Of a stretch of DNA of 64,000 nucleotides, positions 4,088 through 37,254 are shown one piece after another. Below the pieces are notes generated by a model. The model was given only the letters and a program-made list of their open reading frames with translations. It searched no databases and was not told the origin of the DNA. The DNA is from Lachnospiraceae bacterium (GTDB lineage Bacteria; Bacillota; Clostridia; Lachnospirales; Lachnospiraceae). The DNA is taken from NCBI GenBank assembly GCA_017469275.1, contig JAFUGT010000014.1, forward strand, positions 2,079-66,078, written 5' to 3'. Made by a program: the position numbers and the translations under genes. Each line of letters opens with the position of its first letter. Position 1 is the stretch's first letter.

Positions 4088-4113
4088 ACATCAACCCCAC
4101 AAAGCATGACATA

Positions 4114-4143
4114 GGTACATTCCGCCTTACGACAGAATGTACC
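4114..4143 (-). terminator. Stem-loop between pilA and pilD (possible partial terminator or mRNA stabiliser)
   Basis: Perfect 9-bp inverted repeat ggtacattc (4114-4122) / gaatgtacc (4135-4143) with a 12-nt loop, about 25 nt after the pilA stop. The downstream U-tract is weak. Confidence 0.3.
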
Positions 4144-4167
4144 TTACCCTCATACTTAAAATTAGAA

Positions 4168-4617: not shown

Positions 4618-4677
4618 CTCTCCTTTTTATAATATTTTTTATTAAAACCGCCGTTGGTCGCAGCGGATCTAATCACG

Positions 4678-5889: not shown

Positions 5890-6012
5890 CCTTACTCCTC
5901 CACCATTCTCTATTATCACAAAATCCGAAATAGTAATGATATATAATCCTCCCAAGACAATATATCACCGGAAATTATGAACATTTCATTAACAAATTAT
6001 TGCTTAAATATG

Positions 6013-6041
6013 ATAATACTCCATATCCGTCATAATTGCAA
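6013..6041 (-). promoter_or_regulatory. Candidate sigma-A promoter for pilC-pilA
   Basis: On the minus strand: TTGCAA (6041-6036), a 17-nt spacer, then TATTAT (6018-6013). Confidence 0.35.
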
Positions 6042-6090
6042 TATTTTTTTTGTAAAAAAAGATATTTTTATAAAATATGTCAAAAAGTCA

Positions 6091-7143: not shown

Positions 7144-7241
7144 CTGTTAAACCCCTTTCAATTTATAGTTTCATTATATATAATATCTTCCGCAGTATAT
7201 ATGTCATCACATATAACATTAAGATTATGCCGTGTGAAAAA

Positions 7242-20266: not shown

Positions 20267-20306
20267 ATTTTACCATCCTTTGTCCGGTATTCGATATTTT
20301 TATAAT

Positions 20307-21470: not shown

Positions 21471-21476
21471 CCTATT

Positions 21477-24289: not shown

Positions 24290-24680
24290 CTAATGTCTAG
24301 ATGCACTGGTTATTTTCCTTTTACTGTTGTTGCCTCATTAGAATCAACTTCTGTTTACAGCATACCTATAGCTAACTCTCTCTCTTCATGTGAAGTGTTA
24401 TTACTCCTCAAACCTAATATGTTTGCCGTAAACCCCAACCGCACGGCAAACTACAAGAAAACCTACATCGGTGTCGTCAAGTCGGATCATATTGATTCCT
24501 TCGTTATTGCGGACTACGCAAGAGTCGGAAACATTAAAACGAAACCTTTTCGTGGCAGTCAGTTTCTTGCACTTAAATGCCTTACAAGACATCGACTTCA
24601 CGTAAATTTGTTCGTTTAGTTTATGGATTGCTGACCAGAAAACCAACTGTACTCCGGCGTATTGCTTGATACATCAAATA
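24290..24680 (+). pseudogene. IS110-family transposase relic (5'-truncated and internally deleted)
   Basis: LESTSVYSIPIANSL...FAVNPNRTANYKK...VKSDHIDSFVIADYARVG...LALKCLTRHR resembles the DEDD N-domain of IS110 transposases. It shifts frame directly into KFVRLVYGLLTRK, a typical extreme C-terminus. The central catalytic region is absent. Confidence 0.7.
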
Positions 24681-24806: not shown

Positions 24807-26459
24807 CTATTTATAATTAATTTTGTACACATTAAACACATATCCTTCCTCAATAAGTTCATAATCACAATCATACCCATAATGTTCCTTATAATATGTA
24901 AGTAAAACATCAAGTGTCTTCTCTTTACTTTGTACAAAAAACACATTATCCTTGAGCACAATATCTTCAAGTACATTTTTAATTCCCTTATCACTCAAGC
25001 TACTTTTATAAGACGGGGAATTACATAACCAATTTCCTGTTGTTATAACATTTCTCATATAACCAGAGGATATAGAAGCATATGGTTTACAAACAAAACA
25101 AGTATTTAGAAAGTCCAACGTGTTGCACACATATATATTATCATTATCATTAGAGAAATATTCGACCGCTACAATCTCATCATTGTTGTAAAAATTATTA
25201 TAATTGAAATCCCGAAAAACTAACACATAATATATTATTAATGATAATAATAGTATTAAAATTGTAGATATATATATTTTCTTTTCTGATATCTTAGGCA
25301 ATAATTTATGAACATCACAATTATCTAATAACATATATATATACGAAACAATTGCCGAAAGCCATATAACATGATTAACCCTCTCAACCACTCTCCCCAT
25401 ATAAATAAATACAGATATATACATTATTGTTACAATTCCAACAAGAACTCCAAATAGTTGTATTTTTTTATTACTATTCCCAATACAACACAACAATAAC
25501 AACAACCATACCCAAAACAATACTCCATTACATTCTTCTACCAATAAAGCCATATCAAAAGCATTTTCATATTCAGCCTTTTGTATAACACTTAAAGACT
25601 TCAATCTATTTGTATCAAACACATTATTATCATCAAAAATCCAATTATCTAACATCAAAATATCATTGTAAGAAAAACCGTTTTCTTGATAGGCACTTAG
25701 ATTTTCCTCATAATCCGGAAACGGATAATCCATAACAAGAGCTCTTACCTCATTATATGAATTATAATCTTTCCAACCAGCATCAGATAAATAGTATAAT
25801 TTATCAAAAGCTGTCAATACAATAGCAAGTATAGCAACGCCTAAAATAGTAAAAATCATTTTTTTAATATCATTTGAAGTATTCATCATTGAATAAACGA
25901 CAATCAATATTGCAAAAGGTAATATCAGATAAATACTGTCAATTCTCAACATTATTCCATAGACAAACAACAAAACACCCATCCATAAATCAAACTTCGA
26001 GTCATTTACGATGAAAGACCACAAACATAAAAAACCTGCTATCATCATAAAACCTGCAGTTCTTGTAAATTGAATACCCCTTATAAAATTGAAAACAAAT
26101 ACAAACCAACTAAGTAAATTAACACAACATGCTAATTTAATATTTCCCTTGATAGCTATTAACTTTACCAGTGCAGATATTGCGATGATAACAAAAACAT
26201 ATTGAAACACCACGTACCAATTAAAAACAGGAATTAAACCAGTAATAAATTTCAATATATAACCTAAAATAACATTTGAAAAAACAAGACATTGTCGATA
26301 ATTATCGCCATAAGCTCCTGCCAGAATACAACCCATACCAAAATCATCATTAGTTTCAAAATATGTTGGGAAAAAAAATTTTAATATGATTACTGTGTAA
26401 AATAAATTTTGAACAAAAAAAATAAAAAAGTATTTCCATTCCTGTTTCTTCATAGCCAA
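24807..26459 (-). CDS. Uncharacterised polytopic membrane protein, candidate GT-C glycosyltransferase
   Basis: 550 aa with about 11 TM helices. An acidic motif follows TM1 (FETNDDFG), as in GT-C first-loop DxD/ExD motifs. There is a mid-protein soluble loop and a C-terminal soluble domain. It is the last gene of the Arn-like operon. The function is inferred, not recognised by homology. Confidence 0.4.
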   Translation of the reverse strand: MAMKKQEWKYFFIFFVQNLFYTVIILKFFFPTYFETNDDFGMGCILAGAYGDNYRQCLVFSNVILGYILKFITGLIPVFNWYVVFQYVFVIIAISALVKLIAIKGNIKLACCVNLLSWFVFVFNFIRGIQFTRTAGFMMIAGFLCLWSFIVNDSKFDLWMGVLLFVYGIMLRIDSIYLILPFAILIVVYSMMNTSNDIKKMIFTILGVAILAIVLTAFDKLYYLSDAGWKDYNSYNEVRALVMDYPFPDYEENLSAYQENGFSYNDILMLDNWIFDDNNVFDTNRLKSLSVIQKAEYENAFDMALLVEECNGVLFWVWLLLLLCCIGNSNKKIQLFGVLVGIVTIMYISVFIYMGRVVERVNHVIWLSAIVSYIYMLLDNCDVHKLLPKISEKKIYISTILILLLSLIIYYVLVFRDFNYNNFYNNDEIVAVEYFSNDNDNIYVCNTLDFLNTCFVCKPYASISSGYMRNVITTGNWLCNSPSYKSSLSDKGIKNVLEDIVLKDNVFFVQSKEKTLDVLLTYYKEHYGYDCDYELIEEGYVFNVYKINYK

Positions 26460-26478
26460 TCTCCATAATATAATATTA

Positions 26479-27615
26479 TCAATCGAAATATTTATTTATC
26501 ACTTCGATTATGTATATTATCTCTTCCTCAGTAAGCCCATAATACATCGGTAGTCTTAATAATCGATCACTTTCTTTAGTAGTATACTTATCATCTCCTG
26601 AAAATCTTCCATACTTTCTTCCCGCTACAGAACTATGAAGCGGAACATAATGAAAGACAGCCAGTATACCATTATCCTTAAGGTATTTCAACAAATTAGT
26701 TCTTTCTTCTAAATCCTTGACCTTTATATAAAACATATGGGCATTATGCTCACATTCATCAGGTATATATGGTAATGATACGTATCCTTTATCTTCAAGT
26801 TCTTTTAATCCACTATAATACATATTCCATGACTTCATCCTATCCTTTTTGATTTCTTCAGCAACCTCCAATTGAGCCCATAGATAAGCAGCGTTAATTT
26901 CGCTTGGAAGAAACGATGAACCCTTGTCAACCCATGTATATTTGTCAACTTGTCCACGAAAGAACTGATTCCGATTAGTCCCTTTTTCTCTTACTATTTC
27001 TGCCATTTCAAGATATTTCTTGTTATTTAGGAAAATTGCTCCGCCTTCTCCCATGCTGTAATTCTTTGTTTCATGAAAACTGTATGCTCCAAAATCGCCT
27101 AAAGTACCTAATGATTTTCCTTTATATGTAGCACACATTCCCTGTGCAGCATCCTCTATTACGTAAAGGTTATGTCGTCTTGCAATATTATTAATCACAT
27201 CCATATCACAACCCACACCTGCGTAATGGACTGGAACAATCGCTTTTGTTCGTTCAGTAATGGCGTCTTCAATAAGTTGCTCATTAATATTCATAGTATC
27301 TGGTCTGATATCAACAAATACACATGTTGCACCGTGTATCACAAAAGCATTAGCTGTAGAAACAAATGTATATGATGGCATGATAACTTCATCGCCCGGA
27401 CTAATCCCGCAAATCAAAGCACACATCTCCAGCGCAGATGTACATGATGTAGTCAATAATACCTTTTTCGCTTCGGTATAATTCTCTAACCATTGCTGAC
27501 ATTTGTTATTAAATTCTCCATCACCGCATATCTTTCCATTCCTTATGGCCTTAGATATGTACTGCTCTTCCATTCCGACATATGGTGGTTTATTAAATGG
27601 TATCATTTTTATCAC
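26479..27615 (-). CDS. DegT/DnrJ/EryC1 aminotransferase, WecE-like (dTDP-4-amino-4,6-dideoxyhexose transaminase)
   Basis: The N-terminus IPFNKPPYVGMEEQYISKAIRNGKICGDGEFNNKCQQWLE parallels E. coli WecE. The PLP-lysine motif SFHETKNY is present. Confidence 0.85.
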   Translation of the reverse strand: MIKMIPFNKPPYVGMEEQYISKAIRNGKICGDGEFNNKCQQWLENYTEAKKVLLTTSCTSALEMCALICGISPGDEVIMPSYTFVSTANAFVIHGATCVFVDIRPDTMNINEQLIEDAITERTKAIVPVHYAGVGCDMDVINNIARRHNLYVIEDAAQGMCATYKGKSLGTLGDFGAYSFHETKNYSMGEGGAIFLNNKKYLEMAEIVREKGTNRNQFFRGQVDKYTWVDKGSSFLPSEINAAYLWAQLEVAEEIKKDRMKSWNMYYSGLKELEDKGYVSLPYIPDECEHNAHMFYIKVKDLEERTNLLKYLKDNGILAVFHYVPLHSSVAGRKYGRFSGDDKYTTKESDRLLRLPMYYGLTEEEIIYIIEVINKYFD

Positions 27616-27627: not shown

Positions 27628-27978
27628 CTACTTTATACAAGACACACCTATTCCAATTATAATTAAAATAATTCCTAATGCCTTATTCTTTTCTATCTTC
27701 TCATTCACTGTAAAATATCCCAATATTGCAACAAAAATATAGCCCAATGATTCTATAACCGGAGCCATAGAAAGAGGAACTTTTTTGAGGGCAACAACCG
27801 TTAACAATGTGGATGCCAGAAAAATCACATAAGCCGTGATTACATAAGGATTAATATATTCTTTGATAACAGATTCATGTGACTTTTGTGTACTTTTTTT
27901 TAGAAGTACTTGCGCTATGGACGATATAAATACAGAACACACATAAATCAATATATATTTTATCATAGTAATTATCAT
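27628..27978 (-). CDS. Half-size EamA/SMR-like membrane protein (ArnE/ArnF-type flippase subunit candidate)
   Basis: 116 aa with 4 TM helices. It is paired with a second half-size protein next to a polyprenyl-phosphate GT2, as in arnC...arnE-arnF. Confidence 0.55.
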   Translation of the reverse strand: MIITMIKYILIYVCSVFISSIAQVLLKKSTQKSHESVIKEYINPYVITAYVIFLASTLLTVVALKKVPLSMAPVIESLGYIFVAILGYFTVNEKIEKNKALGIILIIIGIGVSCIK

Positions 27979-27991: not shown

Positions 27992-28381
27992 CTATTCTTT
28001 ACTTATTGAATCTGAACGTACCACCAGAATAACACCAGCTATTATAATACATATTCCGATTATTTTCCATATAGTTATATGTTCTCGAAAAAACAAAGCC
28101 CCCCACAGCACTGTCCATATCATACATATCGCTTTATTAGAATACACTGTAGTAAGTTGCATTTTTTTCAATAATTGTTGCCATACAATCGCATATAATC
28201 CCATGTTAAAAAGTGAAATCCCATAAAACAACAAAAATCGCATCGACATAAAAGTTTCCTGCGATGCAACTTTGGACGAAGTCGCCAGTAAAGAATTAAA
28301 TAACAAAAAGACATGTAAAATCAAAATATTTCTAATAGATAAATTATGTTCTTTCAATATCGAATTTCCCTTCCGAATCAT
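27992..28381 (-). CDS. Half-size EamA/SMR-like membrane protein (ArnE/ArnF-type flippase subunit candidate)
   Basis: 129 aa with 4 predicted TM helices. Its 5' end overlaps the GT2 gene by 38 nt. Confidence 0.5.
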   Translation of the reverse strand: MIRKGNSILKEHNLSIRNILILHVFLLFNSLLATSSKVASQETFMSMRFLLFYGISLFNMGLYAIVWQQLLKKMQLTTVYSNKAICMIWTVLWGALFFREHITIWKIIGICIIIAGVILVVRSDSISKE

Positions 28382-29321
28382 CTTGTTTTTTATTATGATC
28401 TACCGTTTGTCTAATAACATATTGTGGCTCACGATTTGCACTCATATACAATCTGCCCACATATTCTCCCATCATTCCCAGTACTATCAATATTACTCCA
28501 CATAATACAAGCGTAACCGCCATCATGGAACTCCAACCTTCCACTACATAAGGATTAATTATTTTTTTAATCAAAACAATAATACTATAAATCAAACCGA
28601 CACACGCCGTAATAAAGCCAAAAAGAGTAGATATTCTGAGTGGTTTAATTGAAAATGTAGTGGCCCCGTTTATCCATAAAGAAACTAATTTAGGAAATGT
28701 ATACCCCGAAGACCCAATTTCCCGTTTTCTATGTCCGACAAACACTGAACCCACCTTATCTGTCGCTCTAAAAACAAGACCAGGTAAATATACGTAAGCA
28801 TTTTGATACTCATTCATAGTATCAATAATGTATTTTTTTGCAGCATAAAAACTACTACCCTCAAACTCTTTAGGAATTGACATCAAGTGAACCCCCATCC
28901 ATTTTGCAAACTTTGAACCGAGATTTCGATATAAACTATGCTTTTTATGTCTATATTTACCATAAACCACATCATATCCATTTTTAAGTTCTTCTACCAA
29001 TTTATATGTATCCTCTACTGCAATCTGACCATCATCATCAAGTGATACCACAACATCTCCTTTTGATAGTCTATATCCAGCAAGTAAAGCAGCATGTTGT
29101 CCGAAATTTCTCGTTAAGTCTATTCCAATAATATTATCATTATTATCACATAACTTCACAATAACCTCCCACACCTTGTCAGGAGATGAATCATTAACCA
29201 ATATTATTTCATAATTGTATTCTTGATGTACCTTTTGTATTTCATGTATTTCATCTATCACACCTTCAATTGTATTTTCAGAACCATAACACGGAATAAC
29301 AAATGAAATCATCTTTTTCAT
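28344..29321 (-). CDS. GT2 polyprenyl-phosphate glycosyltransferase (ArnC/GtrB/CsbB-like)
   Basis: FVIPCYGSE..., LVNDSSPD and SLDDDGQ (DxD) motifs, plus two C-terminal TM helices, as in GtrB/ArnC. Confidence 0.85.
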   Translation of the reverse strand: MKKMISFVIPCYGSENTIEGVIDEIHEIQKVHQEYNYEIILVNDSSPDKVWEVIVKLCDNNDNIIGIDLTRNFGQHAALLAGYRLSKGDVVVSLDDDGQIAVEDTYKLVEELKNGYDVVYGKYRHKKHSLYRNLGSKFAKWMGVHLMSIPKEFEGSSFYAAKKYIIDTMNEYQNAYVYLPGLVFRATDKVGSVFVGHRKREIGSSGYTFPKLVSLWINGATTFSIKPLRISTLFGFITACVGLIYSIIVLIKKIINPYVVEGWSSMMAVTLVLCGVILIVLGMMGEYVGRLYMSANREPQYVIRQTVDHNKKQDDSEGKFDIERT

Positions 29322-29327: not shown

Positions 29328-29861
29328 TCACTCTCCAATATCATTTAATAAGCGCCTTACCTTACTATTTCCATAATCCAACTCATGCTCATAATATGCA
29401 CAAGCTATTCCGTTTCTATCAATATACGCTTTAGGTTCAAACCCATTTTTTTTATGCATTCTCATTACTTTTTTGTTGTTAAGATAAACCACACAGCATA
29501 CCTTATCCAATTTTAAGATATCACGAGCAAAATCATTAAGCAAAATCTCAGCTTCCATAGTTTCTAATGGATTGCCATAACTAACCTCTCTACCAATCTC
29601 GCCCATTTTTCCATGTATATCATAAACACCAATAAGTCCTATTCTTTCCGCTTTCTTATTAAGTACAACAAAATAATAATCGCCAGGCTGTTGCATCTGC
29701 CACTTTATAAATTCTCGTTGTTGTTCCATAGTGTGCGCCGGCTGTCCGACATAGGCTCTAAACTTTTCATTCATCCTAATATTATAAGAAAACTCCGCAT
29801 CATCTAATGTTATACTTCGCATATCAACAAATTTGCCAATAATCACTTCTTCATAAACCAA
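29328..29861 (-). CDS. GNAT family N-acyltransferase (RimJ/RimL-like)
   Basis: 177 aa with acetyltransferase_3-like motifs (YFVVLNK...RIGLIGVYDI, NKKVMRMHKKNGF). Confidence 0.7.
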   Translation of the reverse strand: MVYEEVIIGKFVDMRSITLDDAEFSYNIRMNEKFRAYVGQPAHTMEQQREFIKWQMQQPGDYYFVVLNKKAERIGLIGVYDIHGKMGEIGREVSYGNPLETMEAEILLNDFARDILKLDKVCCVVYLNNKKVMRMHKKNGFEPKAYIDRNGIACAYYEHELDYGNSKVRRLLNDIGE

Positions 29862-29880
29862 AGTATTACCCCCATATAAA

Positions 29881-30663
29881 TCATCTTTTTATGCAATACA
29901 CTATATCCCAAGTACCATCATGTACCAATCCATATTTCTTATGAAAGCGCAGAGACGCTATGTTATTCTCGCTTACCCAAGCATATACATATCGCCCCCC
30001 ATTTTTATAATATTCCTTAAGTCGTTTTATCATAATTGCATGAATATTTTTTTTATCCCCTTTATTATAAACCTGATTAATATAAAAACTTTTGGGTTTA
30101 ATGTCTGTCTGCAATAATGCATCTATATGATTATCATTACCACGATGAATTAGTATTTCTTTTTTTTCAACTATCCCAGCCAATTCCTTATCATCACAAA
30201 GATGACTTATTGCAGTATCAAACTCTGACCACAGTAATTGATTTATTTCATGAACATCATCATATGTAGCAACAATACCTGCAGAATCATCTTCATACTT
30301 CATTATCGTATAATCATCAAGTATCTTTGAACAATCTCTTGTTGCAACCCTCATCATCTTTGCTAACAATATTTCTCCACTGAACACTTTACTGTACTGA
30401 TTATCATCCATTGTAATAAAATCAATATAAAATGTTCCACTATCTAGATTCGAAAGTATTTTTTTTAAATGAAACTTGTCCTGAACATAAAAAAATAGCC
30501 TGTTAATCCCATTATCGTTACACGAAAACAAAAACGATTCTTCATAATCCCAAATATCATCAGCATTTTCTATAACACTTAACGAATAACAATTAGTAAG
30601 TGGTTTACATATCTTTTTTAAATTATTAATATGAGTGATAATAATATCTTTATTAACCATCAA
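29881..30663 (-). CDS. Two-domain protein with a C-terminal GNAT fold (WecD-like architecture)
   Basis: The C-terminal segment YVYAWVSENNIASLRFHKKYGL is a GNAT motif A/B region. The ~130 aa N-domain is unrecognised. Confidence 0.45.
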   Translation of the reverse strand: MMVNKDIIITHINNLKKICKPLTNCYSLSVIENADDIWDYEESFLFSCNDNGINRLFFYVQDKFHLKKILSNLDSGTFYIDFITMDDNQYSKVFSGEILLAKMMRVATRDCSKILDDYTIMKYEDDSAGIVATYDDVHEINQLLWSEFDTAISHLCDDKELAGIVEKKEILIHRGNDNHIDALLQTDIKPKSFYINQVYNKGDKKNIHAIMIKRLKEYYKNGGRYVYAWVSENNIASLRFHKKYGLVHDGTWDIVYCIKR

Positions 30664-30689: not shown

Positions 30690-31754
30690 CTACAAATCAG
30701 ATTCAATGATTTCACAATTATTTAGGTTACCTATATCCATAAATACAACACCCCACGCTAAACCTGATCCAAATGCAGATAAGCAACAACTGTTATTTTT
30801 ATTAATAAGTTCATCTCTTGCGTTAAATATTGCAGTCATTGGTATAGAAGCACCACTTGGATTACCAAAATTTTCAACAAGATTCATTGGAAACTTGTCA
30901 AAAGGAATGCCTACCTTTTGAGCAAGTTTTTTTAACATAAACTTATTCGGCTGATGAAAAAAGAAATAATCAAAATCTTCAATAGTCTTATGTTCACTGT
31001 CAAAAGCATCCTTTAACATTTTAGAGACATCCGACTGAACAAAATTAAACACTTCACTTCCATCCATGCAAATATTATCTAAAGACCTGTAATTCCCTTC
31101 ACTATCCATTTTAACCTTAGCAGTTTCAATATTACAAGGCATTTTAAATCCACCTGCAGGAATAATTAACGCATTTCTGCGTTTTCCGTCTGTATTCATC
31201 TCAAAATAGATTGGAGATGATTCTGAATTTTCCAATACCGTAATACACGCCGCATCACCTATAAGAGGGTAATCATTTCTATCTCTTCTAGAAACCTTAT
31301 GACTAATAACATCACCATTTACCAACAACACTTTTTTATCAATGTGTTCTAATAACATAAACGATTGCATCAAACCAACCAAAAAACCGCAACACCCCTG
31401 AGCAATATCCAAGCAAATTATATTTTCCCCAAATCCACATTCTGCTTGAATTATATTACTTATGTGTGGGACAAAATAATCCGGACACAATGAAACTACT
31501 ACTATCGCTCCAATTTCATTCCTATTAATCCAATTATTAGCAAACATATAATTAATACCATAAATAGCAAAATCAGAAACAGTCGTACTTTCCTTAGATA
31601 ATCTATGACAATTATAACCCATCACTTTCTTTAGTCTCATAGATTGTTTTTCCGTAAAACTGTAATTGCCAATTTCGTCATCAAAATAACTCTCCATTTC
31701 CGGAAGCAATCCAAGCATCGTAGTTATTTTTTTATTATTAAACCGCATAATCAT
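30690..31754 (-). CDS. KASIII (FabH-like) condensing enzyme or acyltransferase
   Basis: Cys-His-Asn triad in context: IAQGCCGFLVG, FFFHQPNKFM, ENFGNPSGASIP. It overlaps the upstream carrier gene by 4 nt. Confidence 0.8.
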   Translation of the reverse strand: MIMRFNNKKITTMLGLLPEMESYFDDEIGNYSFTEKQSMRLKKVMGYNCHRLSKESTTVSDFAIYGINYMFANNWINRNEIGAIVVVSLCPDYFVPHISNIIQAECGFGENIICLDIAQGCCGFLVGLMQSFMLLEHIDKKVLLVNGDVISHKVSRRDRNDYPLIGDAACITVLENSESSPIYFEMNTDGKRRNALIIPAGGFKMPCNIETAKVKMDSEGNYRSLDNICMDGSEVFNFVQSDVSKMLKDAFDSEHKTIEDFDYFFFHQPNKFMLKKLAQKVGIPFDKFPMNLVENFGNPSGASIPMTAIFNARDELINKNNSCCLSAFGSGLAWGVVFMDIGNLNNCEIIESDL

Positions 31755-31984
31755 TTCGATTCACCTTTTGATTTGATAATTAGTGATTGTATAGAATTCA
31801 AAGAAGTAAAATTCTCAGGTAATATATCTAATCCATCAATCGTTACATTATATTTCTCTTCTAACAAATCACAAAGGTTAATAATATCAAATGAATCCAA
31901 CATTCCATCAGCAATAAAGTCACTACTATCACTAAAATCGAATTCCGGTTTAATCTCAGTTAAAATATCTAAAACATCCTGCAT
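31751..31984 (-). CDS. DltC-like aminoacyl/acyl carrier protein
   Basis: 77 aa. ADGMLDSFDIINLCDLLEEKY...PENFTSLNSIQSLI parallels DltC (EEGLLDSFGTVELLL...). The Ser in LDSF is the predicted phosphopantetheine site. Confidence 0.75.
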   Translation of the reverse strand: MQDVLDILTEIKPEFDFSDSSDFIADGMLDSFDIINLCDLLEEKYNVTIDGLDILPENFTSLNSIQSLIIKSKGESK

Positions 31985-32002
31985 ATCACATATCTCCTTA
32001 TA

Positions 32003-33532
32003 TCACATATTATTAATTTTATCTTTTAACAATAGTCTGTCAATTTTTCCATTTGTATTTCTCGGCAATACATCTAATTTAATATATTCTGTTGGTATCA
32101 TATACGAAGGTAATCTTCTCCCTATGTTTTTTCTAAAATCACCAACACTTAATTCATCTTGGTTTTCATAAAACAAAACAATCTCCCGTTTTTCGCTATT
32201 ATAAACGGCACAACAATAATCTACTAATTTCAAGTCATTCTCAACCACATGCTCTATCTCACCTAGCTCTATTCGATATCCCATATGCTTAATTAAACTA
32301 TCTTTTCGCCCCTTAAAAATAATATTTCCATCTTCTCTCAGATATGCTATATCACCCGTACGATAAATCAATTCAGGATACATCGTATTTAAAGGATTTT
32401 GAACAAATGAACTCATAGTCTTCTCTAAATTATTATAATATCCCATGGCTAAAGATGAACCTCGTACACACAATTCACCCTCTTCTCCTATGTGACAAAT
32501 ATTATTATTATCATTTAATATCATAATATCAGTATTTTTATATGGAATACCGATCGGTAATGGTTCATTCTCATCGGGTCGTTCTTTCACAATATAATAT
32601 GTACAATCCAAAGTTATTTCTATGGGCCCGTACAAATTAACAAAAACAGCAGCAGGCAACTTATCATACCACATAGTAAATTGTTTTGTTGGAAACACTT
32701 CGCCCGCAAACCAAACTAATCTTAGATTTGGTAATTCCATTTTATCTAATAAACCTAAATTAGCTATATTTACCATAATAGACGGTACCCAGAAAATAAA
32801 ATTAACATTATTCTTAACTAAACACTCTAGTAATCTAGCTGGAAACGCAGCCAAAAAAGCATCAAGTAGTATCAATTCCGAAGCATTTCTCATCATCATA
32901 CATAATTCAAATTCAAAAATATCAAATACCACAGGTGAAAGCGAACCTATTATTTCACTACCGTCAAAATTAAAAAGTTCTCCCGAAGCATTCATGAAAT
33001 CTATAAAACTCCTATGATTGAGAACGACACCTTTTGGTGTTCCTGTTGAGCCCGATGTATTAATTATACAAAACGGATCAGTATCAATTAACCTACTTCT
33101 CTTTTTTAACAATACTTCGTCATCTATAATAACATTATGCAATTCTATTTCATCTATTATAACTAATGGAATACTTAGACCGGTTAAATTAGCTACATAA
33201 GCGGAACTGGTAACAATCACCATCGGCTTTACTGTTTTCAAAATGTTGTTAATTCTTTCAATCGGAGTTTTTACATCCAAATTAACAAAATGATTTGATG
33301 AATACATGATACCTAAATCCGCAATCACTATATTTATTTCTTTAGGAAGAAAAACCGCTATAGGAATATTTACAGAATCTTTAAACATTGCAGATAAATA
33401 AGTTCCCAGTTTCATTGAATAGTTTTTTAATTCTTTAAAATCAATTTTTGTATCGTTATGTCTCACAGCAATTTTATCAGCATTATGATTTACAGTTGTT
33501 TCAAAATACTCTAATAGATTAATTATATTCAT
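32003..33532 (-). CDS. Adenylate-forming enzyme (DltA/NRPS A-domain-like)
   Basis: Core motifs IINTSGSTGTPKGV, YRTGDIAYLREDGNIIFKGRKDSLIKHMGYRIELGEIE and NGKIDR. Confidence 0.85.
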   Translation of the reverse strand: MNIINLLEYFETTVNHNADKIAVRHNDTKIDFKELKNYSMKLGTYLSAMFKDSVNIPIAVFLPKEINIVIADLGIMYSSNHFVNLDVKTPIERINNILKTVKPMVIVTSSAYVANLTGLSIPLVIIDEIELHNVIIDDEVLLKKRSRLIDTDPFCIINTSGSTGTPKGVVLNHRSFIDFMNASGELFNFDGSEIIGSLSPVVFDIFEFELCMMMRNASELILLDAFLAAFPARLLECLVKNNVNFIFWVPSIMVNIANLGLLDKMELPNLRLVWFAGEVFPTKQFTMWYDKLPAAVFVNLYGPIEITLDCTYYIVKERPDENEPLPIGIPYKNTDIMILNDNNNICHIGEEGELCVRGSSLAMGYYNNLEKTMSSFVQNPLNTMYPELIYRTGDIAYLREDGNIIFKGRKDSLIKHMGYRIELGEIEHVVENDLKLVDYCCAVYNSEKREIVLFYENQDELSVGDFRKNIGRRLPSYMIPTEYIKLDVLPRNTNGKIDRLLLKDKINNM

Positions 33533-33576
33533 AACTATTTACCCTTATCATCATTACTTATTTTAATACAGCCAAT

Positions 33577-34314
33577 TTATCTTTCCGTAATATCTATTGT
33601 CCGTCCCCCGTCAATAGTAATTTGTTGTCCTGTAATCCACCTTGCTTTATCAGATAACAAGAACTCTACAATTGGAGCAATATCGCTAGGTTTCCCAATC
33701 CCCAAAGGATAGTCATTTTCAAATTTCTGTAGCATCTCGGGATTTTCAAACAGTTCTTTTGTCATCTCTGTAATCATACCACCAGGAAGAACAGAATTAA
33801 CTCTCACCCCTGGTGCTAGTTCGACAGCCAAACTACGCATCAATCCATCTAAAGCAGCTTTAGATGAACTATACATAGAAAATGCCGCAGCTCCCCTATT
33901 ACTTATATTACTTGAAATAAAAACAACCGATTTTAAATTACCATTATTAATTTTCTTTGAACATAAACACTTTGTTATTATAGCAGGAGCATAAACATTA
34001 ACCGCGAATATTTTTTGCAAATCGTTTATTTTAATATTCCTCAACGGAAGAATTTTCATAACACCTGCACAATGAACAAAATAATCTACACTAATATTAT
34101 TAACTTTAAGAAATATCTTTAAATCGTTTTCGAGGTTATCAAAATCATTCAGTTCATGATTCCAGATAAAAGGATTATTATCACAAAGAAGTCTGACTTC
34201 TTGTAATCTTTTTTCATCTCTTCCACTTAGAATTATGGTATGTTCCTTAGATAAACTAATTGCTAACTCTCTCCCTACACCTGATGAAGCACCTGTTAAT
34301 AGTAAAAAACCCAT
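33577..34314 (-). CDS. SDR family oxidoreductase
   Basis: LLTGASSGVGRE (TGxxxGxG) and YSSSKAALDG (YxxxK). Confidence 0.85.
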   Translation of the reverse strand: MGFLLLTGASSGVGRELAISLSKEHTIILSGRDEKRLQEVRLLCDNNPFIWNHELNDFDNLENDLKIFLKVNNISVDYFVHCAGVMKILPLRNIKINDLQKIFAVNVYAPAIITKCLCSKKINNGNLKSVVFISSNISNRGAAAFSMYSSSKAALDGLMRSLAVELAPGVRVNSVLPGGMITEMTKELFENPEMLQKFENDYPLGIGKPSDIAPIVEFLLSDKARWITGQQITIDGGRTIDITER

Positions 34315-34349
34315 AAATAGTCCTCCTCGACATATTAATAAACGTAAAG

Positions 34350-35135
34350 TTATTGAGCAGTATACCCACCATCAATGTTAAATACCGCACCTGTGGTCCA
34401 CTTCGAAGCATCTGACAATAAAAAAACCACTGCATTGGCTATATCCAACGCTTCTCCCCAGCCTAACGGATGCATGCGCTCAATTATGTCAGCATAATTA
34501 TTATCGAATAACAAATTAACATTATCTGCCATATTAGTTTTAATAAAACCAGGTGCAACACAATTAACTCTAATTTTTTTATTCGCTAATTCTATAGCTA
34601 AAGATTTTGTCATACCTACAATAGCCGCTTTACTCATAGCGTATGCTACATTCGCAGAAGACCCAACAAGTCCATACACCGAAGATATGAATACAATCGA
34701 ACCTTGCTTACTCATGTCATGTCCTTTTTTCCCAGCAAAAATTTTGGCCAAATTCAATCCTGCTTGAGAATTAATTCGCATAACCTTTTCATAATGATCA
34801 TTGGAAATAGTTCTTAACGGAGATATAGATGGAATTCCTGCACAATGAACCAATCCGGTATATACACTATTTAATTTTTCTCTTGAATCAATAATAATTT
34901 TTTTTACTAATTCAAAATCATTCAAATCAACAACTGCACATACTATTTTATTATTTGAATTCTCTAATTCTTTCTCGAGAGAATTCAATCCGCTCTCATC
35001 TATATCCAACAATAACAAATTTGCCCCTAACTTATAAAGTAATACCGCTGTTTCCCTACCAATTCCAGAAGCTGCACCCGTTACTATTACAGTTTTATCG
35101 TACATCGACATAGGATTTATCATACTATTTTCCAA
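34350..35135 (-). CDS. SDR family oxidoreductase (FabG-like ketoreductase)
   Basis: VTGAASGIGRE, YAMSKAAIVGMTKSLAIELA and a FabG-like C-terminus (GGYTAQ). Confidence 0.85.
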   Translation of the reverse strand: MENSMINPMSMYDKTVIVTGAASGIGRETAVLLYKLGANLLLLDIDESGLNSLEKELENSNNKIVCAVVDLNDFELVKKIIIDSREKLNSVYTGLVHCAGIPSISPLRTISNDHYEKVMRINSQAGLNLAKIFAGKKGHDMSKQGSIVFISSVYGLVGSSANVAYAMSKAAIVGMTKSLAIELANKKIRVNCVAPGFIKTNMADNVNLLFDNNYADIIERMHPLGWGEALDIANAVVFLLSDASKWTTGAVFNIDGGYTAQ

Positions 35136-35138
35136 TTA

Positions 35139-35360
35139 TCACTTCTCCATCAATTCAAGAATATCTTTAACATATACAAAACTTTTTATTTGATCACCTG
35201 AAATCTTCTTTCCAAATTCATCATCAAACATGACGATCAATGAAAGTTTTGTCATTGAATCATACTCTTCAATTTCCTCCAATTTCATATCAGGGTTTAA
35301 GCTACCTTCATCAGTTTCAAACGTTTCCTCCAGTAATTCAAGTTTTTCTTTTTCTGTCAT
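35139..35360 (-). CDS. Acyl carrier protein
   Basis: 73 aa acidic helical protein with an EEYDSMTKLSLI (DSx) phosphopantetheine motif. Confidence 0.75.
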   Translation of the reverse strand: MTEKEKLELLEETFETDEGSLNPDMKLEEIEEYDSMTKLSLIVMFDDEFGKKISGDQIKSFVYVKDILELMEK

Positions 35361-35408
35361 ATTTTTTCTCCTTTTTTTATATTTACTTTAAATGAGTTCT
35401 TTTCTCAT

Positions 35409-36461
35409 CTAATAGTCATCTTCATAATACTCGTCAGTTTTTATAAGTGGATATACATTATCAACGTTCATATAACAATCAACTGCACACCAAGATAAAC
35501 CAATACCATATCCACAAAGCATAAAATGTGATACTCCATTATTTACAAGTGCCAATTTTTCAACCAGAGAAACAGGAATTGATGCAGAAGAAGTATTCGC
35601 AAACTTATCAATTGCTTTTATACTTTTATCAGAAGAAAAGCCTGTTTTCTTCTCAATCTGAGACATAATCAGCTTATTAGATTGATGTAACACAAGATAA
35701 TCATAATCTTCGGCAGTGCAACCCATTTTACCCATTAATTCATTTATTAATACAGGAACCTCATTTGTCGAAAAATTAAAAACCGCTATATCATCAGTAA
35801 TATCAATATCTGCACTTTTATATGGATTCCTATAAAAACCCCATGGAGCGATTAATGCATTATATCGACTTCCATCTGTCTTATACATAAAGTTAATATT
35901 TTTAGCCATAATATCTTTTTTTAGTAACGTAGCACTACCCGCATCTCCAAATAACAATTTACCTGTATTAAATTCTATACTATCAGTTGGGATTTTATCC
36001 CTAGACGCAGTCTCACCACACATCAACAAGCCATATTGCGCTTTAGATTCCATCATTATACTTCCCACTATATTAAGTCCGCATACATATCCCGAACAAC
36101 CCAAATTGACATCAAACGCAATACAATCCTCACCTATACCTAATCTGTATTGAAGAACTGTTGCCGTAGATGGCTTTCTATAATCTGAAGTCTGCGTCAC
36201 ATATACAATGACCCCTATGCTGTTTTTGTCAATCTTTTTATCCTCAATAATCTTTTTAGCAGCGGCATAACACCAATCCGAATTAACCTGATTATAAGTT
36301 GATACAAAACGTCCCTCAACTCCAGTATTTTTGGTAAATTTCTTTATAATTTTTCTATTAGCATCACTTGTATTACCAAATTGATCAGCCAACGAAAGCC
36401 ATCTGTCTGGTACGGCTGCAGAAACCGCTTCTATGCTAATTCCCCTAATACACGATTCCAT
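35409..36461 (-). CDS. KASIII (FabH-like) condensing enzyme
   Basis: Triad in context: DVNLGCSGYVCG, LVLHQSNKLI, KFANTSSASIP. Confidence 0.8.
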   Translation of the reverse strand: MESCIRGISIEAVSAAVPDRWLSLADQFGNTSDANRKIIKKFTKNTGVEGRFVSTYNQVNSDWCYAAAKKIIEDKKIDKNSIGVIVYVTQTSDYRKPSTATVLQYRLGIGEDCIAFDVNLGCSGYVCGLNIVGSIMMESKAQYGLLMCGETASRDKIPTDSIEFNTGKLLFGDAGSATLLKKDIMAKNINFMYKTDGSRYNALIAPWGFYRNPYKSADIDITDDIAVFNFSTNEVPVLINELMGKMGCTAEDYDYLVLHQSNKLIMSQIEKKTGFSSDKSIKAIDKFANTSSASIPVSLVEKLALVNNGVSHFMLCGYGIGLSWCAVDCYMNVDNVYPLIKTDEYYEDDY

Positions 36462-36492
36462 GATCTATTCCTTCCATTCAAAATATTTATAT

Positions 36493-37254
36493 TTAACAAG
36501 ATGTAGAAAAACCTCCATCTACAGGCATTGTTACACCTGTAATCATTCTAGCCTCTTCTGACAATAAAAATGTAATTGCATATGCCACATCTTTAGGTTC
36601 TATAATACCCAAATATTGTCTATTCGATAAAGAACTGTCAGATTCTTCTTCGTAACCATTCATTTTCAAATAATCAATATACATTTGCGTTTTAACCATA
36701 GACGGTGCCACTGAGTTTAAGTAAACATGCTTATTTGACAATTCCTTTGCCATGCATCTAACGGATGCATCCATTGCTGCTTTAGAAGCCGAATATGCAA
36801 TATGAGCTTTATCGCCAAACCTAGCAGCATTAGAAGAAACCGCTACAATTCGCAAGCCATCATTATACATATTTTTCATTGTAACTTGGCGAACACATTC
36901 AACAAACCCAAAATAATTTGTTGTAAATGTATCTAATAACCGCTTATTATTTAAATATTTCAGGGGAACATCTCCATCCGAAATACCTGCTGTATAAACC
37001 ATGCCGTCTAATTTTCCTTGTTCAGATACAATAGTTTTTATCATAGAATTAATTCCATCAATATCTGAAACGTCAAAAACATAACATGCTTTTTTATGAG
37101 AATTAATTTTTTCGATTACATTATGCAATTTTTCTTTACGTCTAGCGACCAATATAACATTTGCGCCTTGTATAGACGTAGTATAGGCTACCTCTTCTCC
37201 GATCCCCGAAGACGCACCTATAATCAATATATTCTTCCCAGATAAATCTATCAT
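36493..37254 (-). CDS. SDR family oxidoreductase
   Basis: IIGASSGIGEE and YSASKAAMDASVRCMAKEL. It is the first gene of the operon. Confidence 0.85.
   Translation of the reverse strand: MIDLSGKNILIIGASSGIGEEVAYTTSIQGANVILVARRKEKLHNVIEKINSHKKACYVFDVSDIDGINSMIKTIVSEQGKLDGMVYTAGISDGDVPLKYLNNKRLLDTFTTNYFGFVECVRQVTMKNMYNDGLRIVAVSSNAARFGDKAHIAYSASKAAMDASVRCMAKELSNKHVYLNSVAPSMVKTQMYIDYLKMNGYEEESDSSLSNRQYLGIIEPKDVAYAITFLLSEEARMITGVTMPVDGGFSTSC

Follow-up and report, generated by a model that had tools for sequence, protein, structure and literature searches.

The window analysed here is a 64-kb stretch of gut Lachnospiraceae DNA that carries, at positions 30690-37254, eight acyl-building genes on the minus strand. 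The open reading frames had been picked out in an earlier note, and all eight were confirmed with their coordinates and strand. They open a low-GC operon of 15 genes and fill its 5′ half; the downstream half encodes a tandem-GNAT protein, an FdhC-like GNAT, an ArnC/PgfS-like GT2, an ArnE/F-like flippase pair, WecE and, last, a polytopic membrane protein. Beyond the operon lies a yfhO gene. The low-GC island lies between rsmE and iscS/thiI, and related copies of the cassette were found in glycan loci. The features are as follows.

36493..37254, minus: SDR1, classical ketoreductase-type (Pfam adh_short/adh_short_C2/KR)
35409..36461, minus: KASIII-A, FabH-like condensing enzyme (Pfam ACP_syn_III and ACP_syn_III_C)
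35139..35360, minus: ACP1, acyl carrier with YDSMTK (PP-binding, 19.3 bits)
34350..35135, minus: SDR2, FabG-like ketoreductase (Pfam, 6e-52)
33577..34314, minus: SDR3, second core SDR (Pfam adh_short_C2, 1.6e-38; PF23441)
32003..33532, minus: stand-alone NRPS/DltA-type adenylating (A) enzyme (AMP-binding, 1.9e-53)
31751..31984, minus: carrier protein 2 with LDSFDIINL (PP-binding, 18.9 bits)
30690..31754, minus: KASIII-B, core condensing enzyme (Pfam ACP_syn_III and ACP_syn_III_C)
29881..30663, minus: G260, tandem-GNAT fold, proposed N-capping enzyme (AF2 model, Foldseek)
29328..29861, minus: G177, GNAT, proposed NDP-aminosugar N-acyltransferase (Pfam Acetyltransf_3, 3.4e-13)
28344..29321, minus: GT2 polyprenyl-phosphate glycosyltransferase, ArnC/GtrB/PgfS-like (Pfam Glycos_transf_2)
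27992..28381, minus: half-size EamA/SMR-like protein, ArnE/F-like flippase subunit 1 (Pfam EamA)
27628..27978, minus: half-size EamA/SMR-like protein, ArnE/F-like flippase subunit 2 (Pfam EamA)
26479..27615, minus: WecE-family dTDP-4-keto-6-deoxyglucose 4-aminotransferase (NCBIfam TIGR02379, NF008687)
24807..26459, minus: 550-aa polytopic membrane protein, candidate GT-C-type transferase (hydropathy)
24293..24619, plus: IS110-family transposase fragment between operon and yfhO (DEDD_Tnp_IS110, 4.7e-12)
21477..24119, minus: YfhO-family GT-C membrane glycosyltransferase, PgfM-like (Pfam YfhO, 1.5e-105)

Pfam scans covering all island ORFs and almost every remaining ORF of 110 aa or more in the window identified none of five enzyme types: hot-dog dehydratase, enoyl reductase, FabD, thioesterase and PPTase. 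The absences that the earlier note had listed, malonyl transferase among them, are thus borne out.

Adenylation, carriers, condensation and reduction

The adenylating enzyme displays the motifs SGSTGTPKG, YRTGD and NGKIDR, all as previously noted. It scored 291 bits against TIGR01733, and its best PDB matches were NRPS A domains, the top one being the LgrA module 2 A domain. These matches support the proposed NRPS/DltA-type amino-acid activator; the score against the DltA subfamily (264 bits) is under the cut-offs of 476 and 560. The specificity code retains Asp235 and Lys517, which are kept in all cassette-linked homologues examined except that of an outlying locus (L054). The 10-residue code DIFFWALLDK is invariant across 121 homologues and, to our knowledge, equals no specificity code previously described. 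The predicted substrate class is a small α-amino acid. The identity of a fatty-acyl-AMP ligase was considered and ruled out by the TIGR01733 score, the A-domain PDB matches and Asp235/Lys517.

Both carriers fall just under the PP-binding gathering score of 20.8 bits. The carrier Ser, whose loss the earlier note had regarded as fatal to its reading, is present in both, within DSM in ACP1 and DSF (LDSFD) in carrier 2, and is kept in nine of nine orthologues of each. ACP1 matched the NCBIfam ACP model PRK05350 (1.7e-7), was found in 23 of 23 complete loci, and presumably bears both the malonyl extender and the chain as it grows. Carrier 2 had been described as clearly DltC-like. This did not hold, as the NCBIfam DltC model matched both carriers equally weakly (E ~2e-4, ~21 bits against a cut-off of 68); carrier 2 gave weak matches to AmcB, OlsHI-ACP and DltC. 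Its stop codon overlaps the KASIII-B start, and in 56 of 65 loci its gene immediately precedes that of KASIII-B. We infer that carrier 2 is the aminoacyl carrier.

In both KASIII proteins, Cys, His and Asn fall at the triad positions of 4EFI (PDB), E. faecalis FabH and E. coli FabH (C112/H244/N274), with the KASIII-A triad aligned to 4EFI, 3IL6 and E. coli FabH. The triad is therefore intact in both, as the earlier note had read it, and the alignment removes the concern of a missing Cys. For KASIII-B, whose nearest PDB match is 4EFI (1e-45), all 120 homologues compared retain the triad unchanged. The nearest PDB relatives of both proteins are FabH-type condensing enzymes (4EFI, FabH, BioZ, PqsD), and neither CerJ nor DpsC was among the 60 best PDB matches, which argues for condensation rather than transfer. 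KASIII-like acyltransferases exist, and triad retention is compatible with that role as well. Gene order and triad conservation are what suggest a decarboxylative condensation starting from an aminoacyl-carrier. The usual primers of KASIII are CoA-bound, and we know of no established activity of an aminoacyl-carrier-primed KASIII in glycan pathways. KASIII-A occurs in only 8 of the 23 complete related loci, and we propose that, together with SDR1, it is an optional extension add-on for second-round elongation. In minimal cassettes KASIII-B is the sole condensing enzyme, and ACP1 and an SDR are still kept.

All three SDRs matched adh_short/adh_short_C2 (E 1e-31 to 1e-52) and harbour YxxxK, unlike the Yx6K of FabI/FabL. 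Both YxxxK and TGxxxGxG had been ascribed to all three; the former stands in each, while SDR1 deviates from the latter (IGASSGIG, with YSASK). SDR1 orthologues with 58-61% identity occupy the equivalent position in three loci (L011-L013). SDR2 (VTGAASGIG, YAMSK) scored 175 bits against the NCBIfam FabG subfamily, under its cut-off. The best PDB match of SDR3 is 4-hydroxyisoleucine dehydrogenase (5GWT). The idea that each keto group has its own reductase was not upheld, as loci carry 1-3 SDRs per 1-3 KASIII in a varying ratio. That SDR number does not track KASIII number counts against the model favoured below, as does the alternation of SDR3 with an AAC(3)-like N-acetyltransferase, which takes the same position in other loci.

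Related loci, proposed N-capping enzymes and sugar genes

About 90 related loci were found in Clostridia, Bacilli, Bacteroidota and environmental metagenomes. Their conserved core consists of the adenylating enzyme, carrier 2 and KASIII-B. This trio is 55-70% identical (KASIII-B, 59-68%) between loci, whereas ACP1, KASIII-A and the SDRs of the same loci reach only 30-45%; the adenylating enzyme is tightly tied genetically to its two partners. One more distant set of loci (48-51% identity) has the arrangement A-(G260|FormT)-CP2-KASB-ACP1-SDR, which places KASIII-B between the two carriers. An MBL-fold hydrolase, possibly a thioesterase, ends the cassette in 18 of the 23 complete loci; none is present in the 64-kb window, a point against the favoured model. 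So is the core cassette of the cultured Paenibacillus cellulosilyticus, which is flanked by secA/prfB and arg genes and has no sugar gene closer than 14 kb. Parabacteroides distasonis harbours a parallel cassette (carrier, carrier, acyl-AMP ligase, KASIII, SDR, PglD-like transferase), which by its gene content shows the same putative logic of an adenylate-loaded starter and a KASIII.

G260 belongs to no Pfam family. Its AF2 model (pLDDT 94.5) matched WecD, VipF and MshD in Foldseek at ~1e-8, WecD being the best fold match, and its family comprises only 173 representative clusters. All 23 of the complete loci encode either G260 or a Formyl_trans_N protein, the two occupying interchangeable positions, and have a separate sugar N-acyltransferase (G177 or PglD-like) as well. 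From fold and distribution we propose that G260 caps the amine of an amino-acid-derived chain. This universal N-capping enzyme, absent from the earlier note, is the best evidence for an amine in the chain.

The best PDB match of G177 is FdhC (5KTA, 1.8e-5), a GNAT that places 3-hydroxybutanoyl on a dTDP-aminosugar. Where the sugar genes are of the PglE/PglF type, the place of G177 is taken by a PglD-like LbH acyltransferase. WecE scored 638 bits against TIGR02379 (cut-off 435) and 631 bits against NF008687 (cut-off 375), and on these scores the aminotransferase assignment is bona fide. The GT2, with two C-terminal TM helices by hydropathy, reached 173 bits for NCBIfam ArnC and 151 bits for PgfS, both under the cut-offs. 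Flippase subunit 1 has four TM segments and weak ArnE/ArnF matches; subunit 2 matched ArnE at 4.4e-8 and ArnF at 4.2e-7. The 550-aa protein, with ~10 hydrophobic segments ahead of a soluble C-terminal region, matched no Pfam or NCBIfam family, and is 24% identical to a large membrane protein beside WecE in another locus (L007); it is a candidate GT-C-type transferase for delivering the sugar to its acceptor. The YfhO protein is far under the cut-offs for NCBIfam PgfM2/PgfM1, and could act in this pathway or in another.

The earlier note had suggested an N-substituent of a dideoxy-aminosugar, and the presence of WecE, an FdhC-like GNAT and Und-P glycosylation genes in one operon agrees with this. 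The acyl target is very probably the amine of a 4-amino-4,6-dideoxyhexose. The host, however, is a Gram-positive spore-former, and by analogy the delivery route is Arn-like or CsbB-YfhO-like and not that of a Gram-negative O-antigen.

Comparison with known systems

In F. psychrophilum, wfpC-G have been proposed to place 3,5-dihydroxyhexanoyl on Qui2NAc4N by means of two KAS, an ACP, a KR and a PglD-like transferase (PMC6519341). As in the cassette, a dedicated ACP, two 3-ketoacyl-ACP synthases and a ketoreductase occur in a glycan locus with no dehydratase or enoyl reductase, and a sugar N-acyltransferase is proposed to act on a 4-amino-4,6-dideoxy sugar. This published proposal sets a precedent for the ACP/KAS/KR/transferase logic. 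As described, however, it has no adenylating enzyme, second carrier or N-capping enzyme; its transferase is PglD-like (LbH) rather than a GNAT, it belongs to a Gram-negative Wzx/Wzy O-antigen system, and its R-group route is a genetic proposal.

DltA/DltC and AlmE/AlmF/AlmG also combine a stand-alone amino-acid adenylating enzyme with a dedicated carrier in envelope modification, whereas the cassette carrier is coupled to KASIII, ACP and ketoreductases, and Pfam scans of the island identified no DltB/DltD or LpxL-type transferase. In pactamycin biosynthesis (PtmS/PtmI/PtmK), an acid with an amino group is loaded by a separate adenylate-forming enzyme onto a stand-alone ACP, and a KASIII adds one malonyl unit to it, as proposed for the cassette; the starter is 3-aminobenzoate, not an α-amino acid, and the pathway is an antibiotic one. 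Within an O-antigen cluster, Vibrio cholerae O1 rfbK-O use an ACP and an AMP-forming ligase to build the unusual N-acyl group of perosamine, a 4-amino-4,6-dideoxy sugar, with no KASIII or amino-acid A domain; the product is 3-deoxy-L-glycero-tetronate.

FdhC and WecE-WecD N-acylation are matched in the operon by WecE, the FdhC-related G177 and the WecD-like fold of G260. The G177 similarity is weak, its donor presumably being a more complex acyl group in thioester linkage to ACP, and G260 is more likely to act on the chain amine, as a cap, than on the sugar. The Arn and CsbB/GtrB-flippase-YfhO (Pgf) systems share with the operon an aminotransferase, N-acylation, a GT2 acting on undecaprenyl phosphate, a two-subunit small flippase and a large GT-C-type membrane transferase. 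All ArnC, ArnE/F and PgfS/PgfM matches are under curated cut-offs; relative to Arn, the sugar would be dTDP-4-amino-4,6-dideoxyhexose and not UDP-Ara4N, and the operon has no ArnA, ArnD or ArnT.

Proposed pathway and alternatives

The eight genes probably build a short amino-/hydroxy-acyl group from an amino acid and malonyl units, decorating a surface-exported amino sugar. Our preferred reading, a tentative one with a probability of roughly 0.45, is that the cassette is a minimal discrete NRPS/type-II-PKS hybrid, the acyl half of a surface-glycan decoration operon, and follows an amino-acid-primed route. The A enzyme, whose class is shown, would adenylate a small α-amino acid and load carrier 2, and G260 would cap the amino group, a formyltransferase doing so in other loci. 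The Cys of KASIII-B would receive the aminoacyl unit from carrier 2 and condense it, with decarboxylation, with malonyl-ACP1 charged by housekeeping FabD, giving 4-(acyl)amino-3-oxoacyl-ACP1. A core SDR would reduce the 3-keto group, and KASIII-A with SDR1 may add one further C2 unit and a second hydroxyl; with no dehydration or enoyl reduction, the product would be a statine-like 6-amino-3,5-dihydroxyacyl chain. G177 would move it to the 4-amino group of the WecE-made sugar, which the GT2 would then transfer to undecaprenyl phosphate. By analogy, the ArnE/F-like pair would flip the lipid-linked sugar, and the 550-aa protein and/or YfhO may attach it to an envelope polymer or protein. Our literature searches found no biochemical study of the A/carrier 2/KASIII-B trio and no glycan with a γ-amino-β-hydroxyacyl N-substituent, the latter a further point against this reading; the assembly line is small, widespread and unstudied.

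Somewhat unlikely, in our estimate, are separate hydroxyacyl and aminoacyl branches linked through an amide or ester bond. KASIII-B, alone or together with KASIII-A, would act with ACP1 and the SDRs on acetyl-CoA and malonyl-ACP1 in the manner of FabH/FabG to give 3-hydroxybutanoyl- or 3,5-dihydroxyhexanoyl-ACP1, and G260 (Fem/MprF-like fold) or the AAC(3)-like enzyme would couple this with the aminoacyl unit that the A enzyme and carrier 2 supply. The outcome would be an N-(hydroxyacyl)-aminoacyl substituent of the sugar amine, a type known in several O-antigens, which contain N-(3-hydroxybutanoyl)-alanyl and N-acetyl-aminoacyl amides of Qui4N/Qui3N/Fuc3N. G260 has Foldseek matches to aminoacyl-transferring MprF/L-PGS domains (~1e-6) and lies between A and carrier 2 in several loci, the F. 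psychrophilum precedent requires no amino acid, and KASIII-B, in a low-identity alignment, appears to retain the CoA contacts R36/R151 of FabH. Two branches leave unexplained, however, why carrier 2 and not ACP1 is translationally coupled to and co-conserved with KASIII-B. They also leave unexplained the swapping of a formyltransferase for G260 at one position, since formylation is capping and not coupling, and a generic FabH reaction needs no KASIII kept at 60-70% identity amid varying neighbours.

We regard as improbable a KASIII-B that is a non-decarboxylating acyltransferase like CerJ, ChlB6 or PtmR, an option raised in the earlier note. Such enzymes acting on sugars are established in natural-product pathways, and the pairing of A enzyme with carrier is reminiscent of DltA/DltC and AlmE/AlmF. 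KASIII-B, in function akin to AlmG or DltB/D, would move the aminoacyl group from carrier 2 to a hydroxyl or amine of the sugar or hydroxyacyl chain, yielding a cationic aminoacyl ester comparable to D-alanylation or lipid A glycylation. The invariance of the full triad, decarboxylation residues included, and the lack of CerJ/DpsC-type proteins among the 60 best PDB matches argue otherwise; moreover, ACP1 and the SDR of minimal cassettes would be left with no condensing enzyme, and universal N-capping enzymes speak against a free cationic amine as the purpose.

A free small molecule, such as an N-acyl γ-amino-β-hydroxy acid released by the MBL hydrolase, with a secondary glycan-gene association, is quite improbable. 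It would suit the P. cellulosilyticus cassette and the hydrolase at the end of most complete loci, but the window has no such hydrolase, and, both here and in almost every other locus with sufficient flanking sequence, the cassette is part of an operon encoding a sugar aminotransferase and a sugar N-acyltransferase.

Spare fabH/fabG/acpP paralogues for ordinary fatty-acid or lipid synthesis, as FabH/FabG/ACP-like annotation at the family level would allow, are barely credible: every gene scores under the curated NCBIfam cut-offs for FabH, FabG and AcpP, genes for FabD, FabZ, FabI/K and FabF were not found among the scanned ORFs of the window, and the location in a low-GC island, the related copies in glycan loci and the constant linkage to an amino-acid A domain and glycan genes set the cassette apart from housekeeping synthesis, as the first reading of this DNA had supposed.

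The operon and its surroundings

The eight open reading frames on the minus strand between 30690 and 37254 proved to be real, and their domains agreed with the description in the earlier note, namely three SDRs, two KASIII proteins, two carriers and an adenylating enzyme. The genes are separated by gaps of 3-48 nt, and the stop codon of carrier 2 overlaps the start of KASIII-B. None of the eight proteins reached the curated NCBIfam cut-offs for FabH, FabG, AcpP or DltA. The operon runs on, tightly packed, for seven genes past KASIII-B.

Genes of the operon and those next to it
30690-37254, minus strand: SDR1, KASIII-A, ACP1 (a small carrier), SDR2, SDR3, the stand-alone adenylating enzyme (A enzyme), carrier 2 and KASIII-B
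after KASIII-B: G260, a protein of 260 aa without a Pfam family
operon: G177, a 177-aa GNAT
operon: GT2 with two C-terminal TM helices
operon: two half-size EamA proteins
operon: DegT-family aminotransferase
operon, last gene: polytopic membrane protein, 550 aa
24293-24619, plus strand, past the operon: IS110-family transposase fragment
21477-24119, following the fragment: YfhO gene

The GC content is low (29-36%) at approximately 21.5-37.3 kb, compared with 37-43% in the flanks. Upstream of this stretch lie hrcA, grpE, dnaK, dnaJ, prmA and rsmE, and downstream an IscS-like desulfurase gene and thiI. Every gene in the region of about 19-48 kb is on the minus strand. The remaining genes of the window include lepA, sporulation and germination genes, comEC, holA and a type IV pilus cluster. 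A scan for promoters and terminators performed no better than with shuffled sequences (112 promoter-like sites versus 103, and 7 terminator-like sites versus 5). The IS110 fragment occupies a 687-nt gap between the gene for the 550-aa membrane protein and yfhO, and the insertion may have uncoupled yfhO from the operon. An ENA scaffold (locus L001) encodes an identical A enzyme, yet is not base-identical to the window; its YfhO is divided into two gene calls (19414-21530), as opposed to one intact 880-aa ORF in the window.

The adenylating enzyme, carriers, ketoreductases and condensing enzymes

The A enzyme is a stand-alone protein of 509 aa with motifs A3 (SGSTGTPKG), A8 (YRTGD) and A10 (NGKIDR) all present. 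Its top PDB matches were exclusively A domains of NRPSs (LgrA module 2, SrfA-C, TycA and GrsA ranking best) or DltA. The score against TIGR01733, the model for NRPS amino-acid adenylation, was 291 bits (cut-off 317). Curated DltA models gave 264 bits against a cut-off of 476 and 243 against 560, and an MBOAT or DltD protein, sought as a sign of a DltB/DltD neighbourhood, was absent from the island. The earlier note had also considered a fatty-acyl-AMP ligase; acyl-CoA ligase models reached at most 143 bits, far under the amino-acid A-domain scores, which speaks against such an enzyme. The ten specificity positions were then mapped using the motifs as anchors. The resulting code, DIFFWALLDK, was invariant in 121 homologues, with Asp235 and Lys517 retained. 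As these two residues hold the alpha-amino and carboxylate groups of the substrate in A domains, the substrate of the A enzyme is predicted to be an alpha-amino acid. The pocket lining of bulky hydrophobic residues (Phe, Phe, Trp, Leu and Leu) points to a substrate with a small side chain.

Both carriers are about 75 aa long with a DSx motif, and the Ser that would accept phosphopantetheine was kept in 9/9 orthologues of each. Their scores against the Pfam PP-binding model (19.3 and 18.9 bits) fell under the gathering score of 20.8, and we consider ACP1 and carrier 2 to be divergent carriers. Calling carrier 2 clearly DltC-like, as had been done, was an overstatement; the two carriers matched the DltC model equally weakly. 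The three classical SDRs each possess GxxxGxG and YxxxK. None reached the FabG equivalog cut-offs or displayed the Yx6K spacing of FabI/FabL, and the FabL model gave SDR1 111 bits (cut-off 328). The absences listed in the earlier note were also borne out; neither the island nor the scanned ORFs of the 64-kb window yielded a dehydratase, an enoyl reductase, FabD, a thioesterase or a PPTase.

Concerning the two KASIII proteins, both carry ACP_syn_III and ACP_syn_III_C domains with Pfam scores over the gathering thresholds. The Cys-His-Asn triad pointed out previously aligned in both with those of 4EFI, 3IL6 and E. coli FabH, and was invariant in 120/120 KASIII-B homologues in an alignment that included E. 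coli FabH (with residue indices checked). The nearest PDB entry for both was 4EFI, an uncharacterised KASIII from Burkholderia, followed by true FabH proteins. Judging from the domains and the triad, both are KASIII/FabH-type condensing enzymes, predicted to carry out decarboxylative Claisen condensation. A role in housekeeping fatty acid synthesis is essentially excluded, as scores of 150 and 129 bits against TIGR00747 (FabH; cut-off 292) do not support housekeeping-FabH orthology; against PRK12880 they were 147 and 198 bits (cut-off 436). Another alternative is that KASIII-B acts as an acyltransferase. The 60 best PDB matches of each KASIII included no CerJ/DpsC/ChlB6-type acyltransferases, and the triad is unaltered.

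Related loci in other bacteria

Thirteen loci were read through exact look-up or plasmid search, and 80 more were collected by a metagenome scan with a KASIII-B alignment (47-70% identity); loci were annotated by BLAST against our own reference set. A contig search with the single sequence of the A enzyme returned only one Porphyromonadaceae MAG, in two contig fragments. At 65-71% identity, each core protein was represented by over 120 90%-identity clusters, all from metagenomes or MAGs (for example Lachnospiraceae, Saccharofermentans and Clostridiales). The cassette is widespread and coherent, abundant in rumen and gut Clostridia and found also in Bacilli, Bacteroidota and soil and peat metagenomes; its chemistry is predicted throughout. 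The exact eight-gene order of the window recurs in four loci (L011, L012, L013 and L021), in most cases with G260 and an MBL-fold hydrolase coming next. Between loci, identity is 55-70% for the A enzyme, carrier 2 and KASIII-B, and only 30-45% for ACP1, KASIII-A and the SDRs. Carrier 2 lies immediately upstream of KASIII-B in 56 of the 65 loci with enough upstream sequence. Gene content was counted in 23 complete loci, defined as those flanked on each side by at least 4.5 kb.

Occurrence of cassette genes in the 23 complete loci
A enzyme: 23/23
ACP1: 23/23
G260 or Formyl_trans_N protein (FormT): 23/23 (18 + 5)
MBL hydrolase: 18/23
AAC(3)-like N-acetyltransferase (PF02522): 12/23
KASIII-A: 8/23

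In those 18 loci the MBL hydrolase stands at the cassette end, and among them are the three whose gene order matches that of the window exactly (L011, 10838-11569). It is absent from the window (29861-29881), where tblastn revealed no remnant. In minimal cassettes, such as L009, L010, the Porphyromonadaceae MAG (L003/L004) and Paenibacillus cellulosilyticus (L014), KASIII-B is the sole condensing enzyme and is accompanied by ACP1 and one or two SDRs. A distant group has the order A enzyme, G260 or FormT, carrier 2, KASIII-B, ACP1, SDR, a second SDR or the AAC(3)-like enzyme, MBL hydrolase, PglD-like protein or G177, and PglE-like protein or WecE, so that both carriers flank KASIII-B. A fixed slot between ACP1 and the A enzyme holds either a second SDR or the AAC(3)-like enzyme, whatever the sugar genes (SDR3 at 33577-34314 in the window; 9129-9986 in L007; 2400-3149 in L003). 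A rule of one SDR per KASIII, drawn from the first five loci, was dropped when the larger sample displayed 1-3 SDRs and 1-3 KASIII proteins that did not track each other.

The A enzyme itself varies. At least two A-domain classes, with codes DI[FY]FWALLDK and DNLF[LI]ALVDK, adjoin near-identical KASIII-B proteins. The second clade (L020, L023, L025, L026, L028, L031, L034, L044, L045 and L047) is about 44% identical to the A enzyme of the window, while the adjacent KASIII-B proteins are still approximately 61-68% identical to their counterpart. A divergent A enzyme beside a conserved KASIII-B implies that the starter amino acid has been swapped in these loci. Lys517 is kept in all cassette-linked A enzymes, and Asp235 in all except that of L054 (code SMLYLALDIK). 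Some cassettes contain further tailoring genes, encoding a SAM methyltransferase, a PhyH-type dioxygenase, an FkbH-like protein, a second AMP-ligase, or 2-oxoacid dehydrogenase E1/E3 with lipoate ligase (L082, 11085-12499; L044, 7783-9570; L048, 10838-16166; L026, 12814-14196). A dehydratase or enoyl reductase was present in none of the related cassettes inspected for extra genes.

A capsule locus on a Parabacteroides distasonis plasmid (NZ_OY725812.1; L015, 6453-10792) harbours an analogous cassette consisting of a PglD-like acetyltransferase, a PP-binding protein, an ACP, an AMP-binding protein, an A-type KASIII and an SDR. Its AMP-binding protein (463 aa) differs from the ligase of the window in lacking the Asp235 motif, and the starter is presumably not an amino acid. 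On one long-read contig (L006, 11533-12834) carrier 2 and KASIII-B were called as one 433-aa protein. We rejected this as a natural, Rosetta-stone-type fusion, since the contig contains several other broken genes nearby, and the two genes are separate in its twin, L005; an indel or assembly error is the probable cause.

G260 adopts a two-lobed GNAT fold in a structural model with a pLDDT of 94.5. Its best fold matches were WecD, VipF and MshD, with MprF-type aminoacyl transferases ranking below. The match to WecD at first led us to regard G260 as the sugar N-acyltransferase, a reading dropped on the evidence of the loci. The sugar N-acyltransferase depends on the sugar genes (G177 accompanies WecE/Arn-like sets, a PglD-like protein PglF/PglE-type sets), whereas G260 travels with the A enzyme and carrier genes and is interchangeable there with FormT. 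We thus propose that G260 is an N-capping enzyme and G177 the sugar transferase.

A proposed route to an N-acylated aminosugar

The conservation of the core, the coupling of carrier 2 to KASIII-B, the genes found in 23/23 loci, the minimal cassettes, the gene order of the distant group and the switching between G177 and PglD-like proteins are most simply read as a starter module that would supply the same type of first intermediate everywhere. On this reading, the module comprises the A enzyme, carrier 2, the N-cap enzyme and KASIII-B together with ACP1 and a ketoreductase. Around it are tailoring genes that vary and, optionally, an extension module made up of KASIII-A and an SDR. An amino acid would be loaded onto carrier 2 and N-acetylated by G260, or N-formylated in other loci. 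KASIII-B would condense the capped aminoacyl unit with malonyl-ACP1 and the product would be reduced, with a second extension and a second reduction in the window. G177 would then move the acyl chain to dTDP-Fuc4N or dTDP-Qui4N, and the sugar would be transferred to Und-P, flipped and attached outside the membrane. The route was drawn from domain identities, intact catalytic residues, the amino-acid-type A domain, the WecE assignment and gene-neighbourhood statistics. The chemistry of each step, the sequence in which capping and condensation occur, the donor of the acyl group for G177 and the final acceptor are predictions.

The sugar side of this proposal begins with the aminotransferase, which passed both WecE models (638 bits, cut-off 435; 631 bits, cut-off 375). 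The acyl acceptor would hence be a dTDP-4-amino-4,6-dideoxyhexose, Fuc4N or Qui4N. The sole sugar-related solved relative of G177 was FdhC (E = 1.8e-5), a GNAT that adds 3-hydroxybutanoyl to a dTDP-aminosugar. The GT2 is similar to ArnC and PgfS, the two EamA halves to ArnE and ArnF, and YfhO to PgfM1 and PgfM2, all with scores under the cut-offs. In comparison with the Arn pathway the working layout is the same, but the window system is neither a member nor an orthologous set; ArnC gave 173 bits against 529, ArnE/F 27-33 against 92-99 and ArnB 199 against 631, and ArnA, ArnD and ArnT are absent. The GT2 with two C-terminal TM segments and YfhO (Pfam, 1.5e-105) also agree with GtrB/CsbB-flippase-YfhO systems, with the GtrA slot filled here by the pair of EamA half-transporters and YfhO as a candidate partner. 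Common to both families is a layout of aminotransferase, N-acyltransferase, Und-P glycosyltransferase, two-subunit flippase and large membrane transferase.

Taken furthest, the proposal is that an N-capped aminoacyl-carrier primes a discrete KASIII, which adds one or two malonyl units to the amino acid, constituting a free-standing type II NRPS-PKS hybrid devoted to primary surface-glycan decoration and not to secondary metabolism. It would place statine-like gamma-amino-beta-hydroxyacyl groups on 4-amino-4,6-dideoxy sugars bound for a Gram-positive envelope by an Arn-like undecaprenyl-phosphate route. Across bacteria of the gut, the rumen and the environment, the cassette would be diversified combinatorially through changes of amino acid, cap, chain length, tailoring and sugar. 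We assign this reading a probability of about 0.4. A serious rival, which we judge rather unlikely, has separate hydroxyacyl and aminoacyl branches joined by an amide bond to form an N-(3-hydroxyacyl)-aminoacyl group. Groups of this kind are already known in O-antigens, but the scheme explains less well why carrier 2 is coupled to KASIII-B and why G260 and the formyltransferase are interchangeable. A further alternative is that the product of the cassette is a free metabolite. The cassette of the cultured isolate P. cellulosilyticus KACC 14175 (NZ_CP054613.1; L014, 9274-15711), in the order ACP1, SDR, AAC(3)-like enzyme, A enzyme, G260, carrier 2, KASIII-B and MBL hydrolase, lies between secA/prfB and YitT with arg genes, with no sugar genes within 14 kb.

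Discrete A/ACP/KASIII starter logic occurs in pactamycin biosynthesis, and Dlt and Alm carry out carrier-dependent aminoacylation of envelopes. Our literature search found nothing on an A/carrier/KASIII trio in glycan loci, on sugars bearing amino-hydroxyacyl groups, on the predicted C-C-extended amino-acid substituent or on FdhC; the sole match was the proposal for F. psychrophilum, a genetic precedent for ACP/KAS/KR/transferase logic (PMC6519341). What appears new is the combination, within glycan loci, of an amino-acid A domain, a carrier, a KASIII and a universal N-capping enzyme, of which we found no description. Unusual N-acyl groups carried by amino sugars act as dominant antigenic determinants in bacterial surface glycans, and to our knowledge the biosynthetic genes for most of them are guesses. 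If the proposed route holds, a KASIII primed from an aminoacyl carrier protein would be a new biochemical activity, C-C-extended amino acids would be a new class of glycan substituent, and commensals would possess a modular toolkit for varying their surface chemistry, in which amino acid, N-cap, elongation, hydroxylase, methylase and sugar can each be swapped. The genes also predict an Arn-like route for lipid-linked aminosugars in spore-forming Gram-positive bacteria. The system can be tested directly with a few small soluble proteins.

A link to pilin glycosylation is possible. The window carries a type IV pilus cluster at 322-8960 (PilM/N, prepilin peptidase, pilin at 4168-4617, PilC, PilT and PilB), and in L012 (13182-19068) the acyl cassette, a PglD-like transferase and a GT2 directly adjoin pilB-pilT-pilC-pilin-pilD-pilMN. 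Elsewhere in the window, SpoIIP (49041-50330) is split into adjacent ORFs at 49512-50330 and 49041-49508, corresponding to the first and second halves of the Pfam model, possibly through a frameshift, pseudogene formation or assembly error. Between the pilus cluster and a U32 peptidase, 9027-10514 encodes a 495-aa protein with BspA-type leucine-rich repeats and DUF6273.
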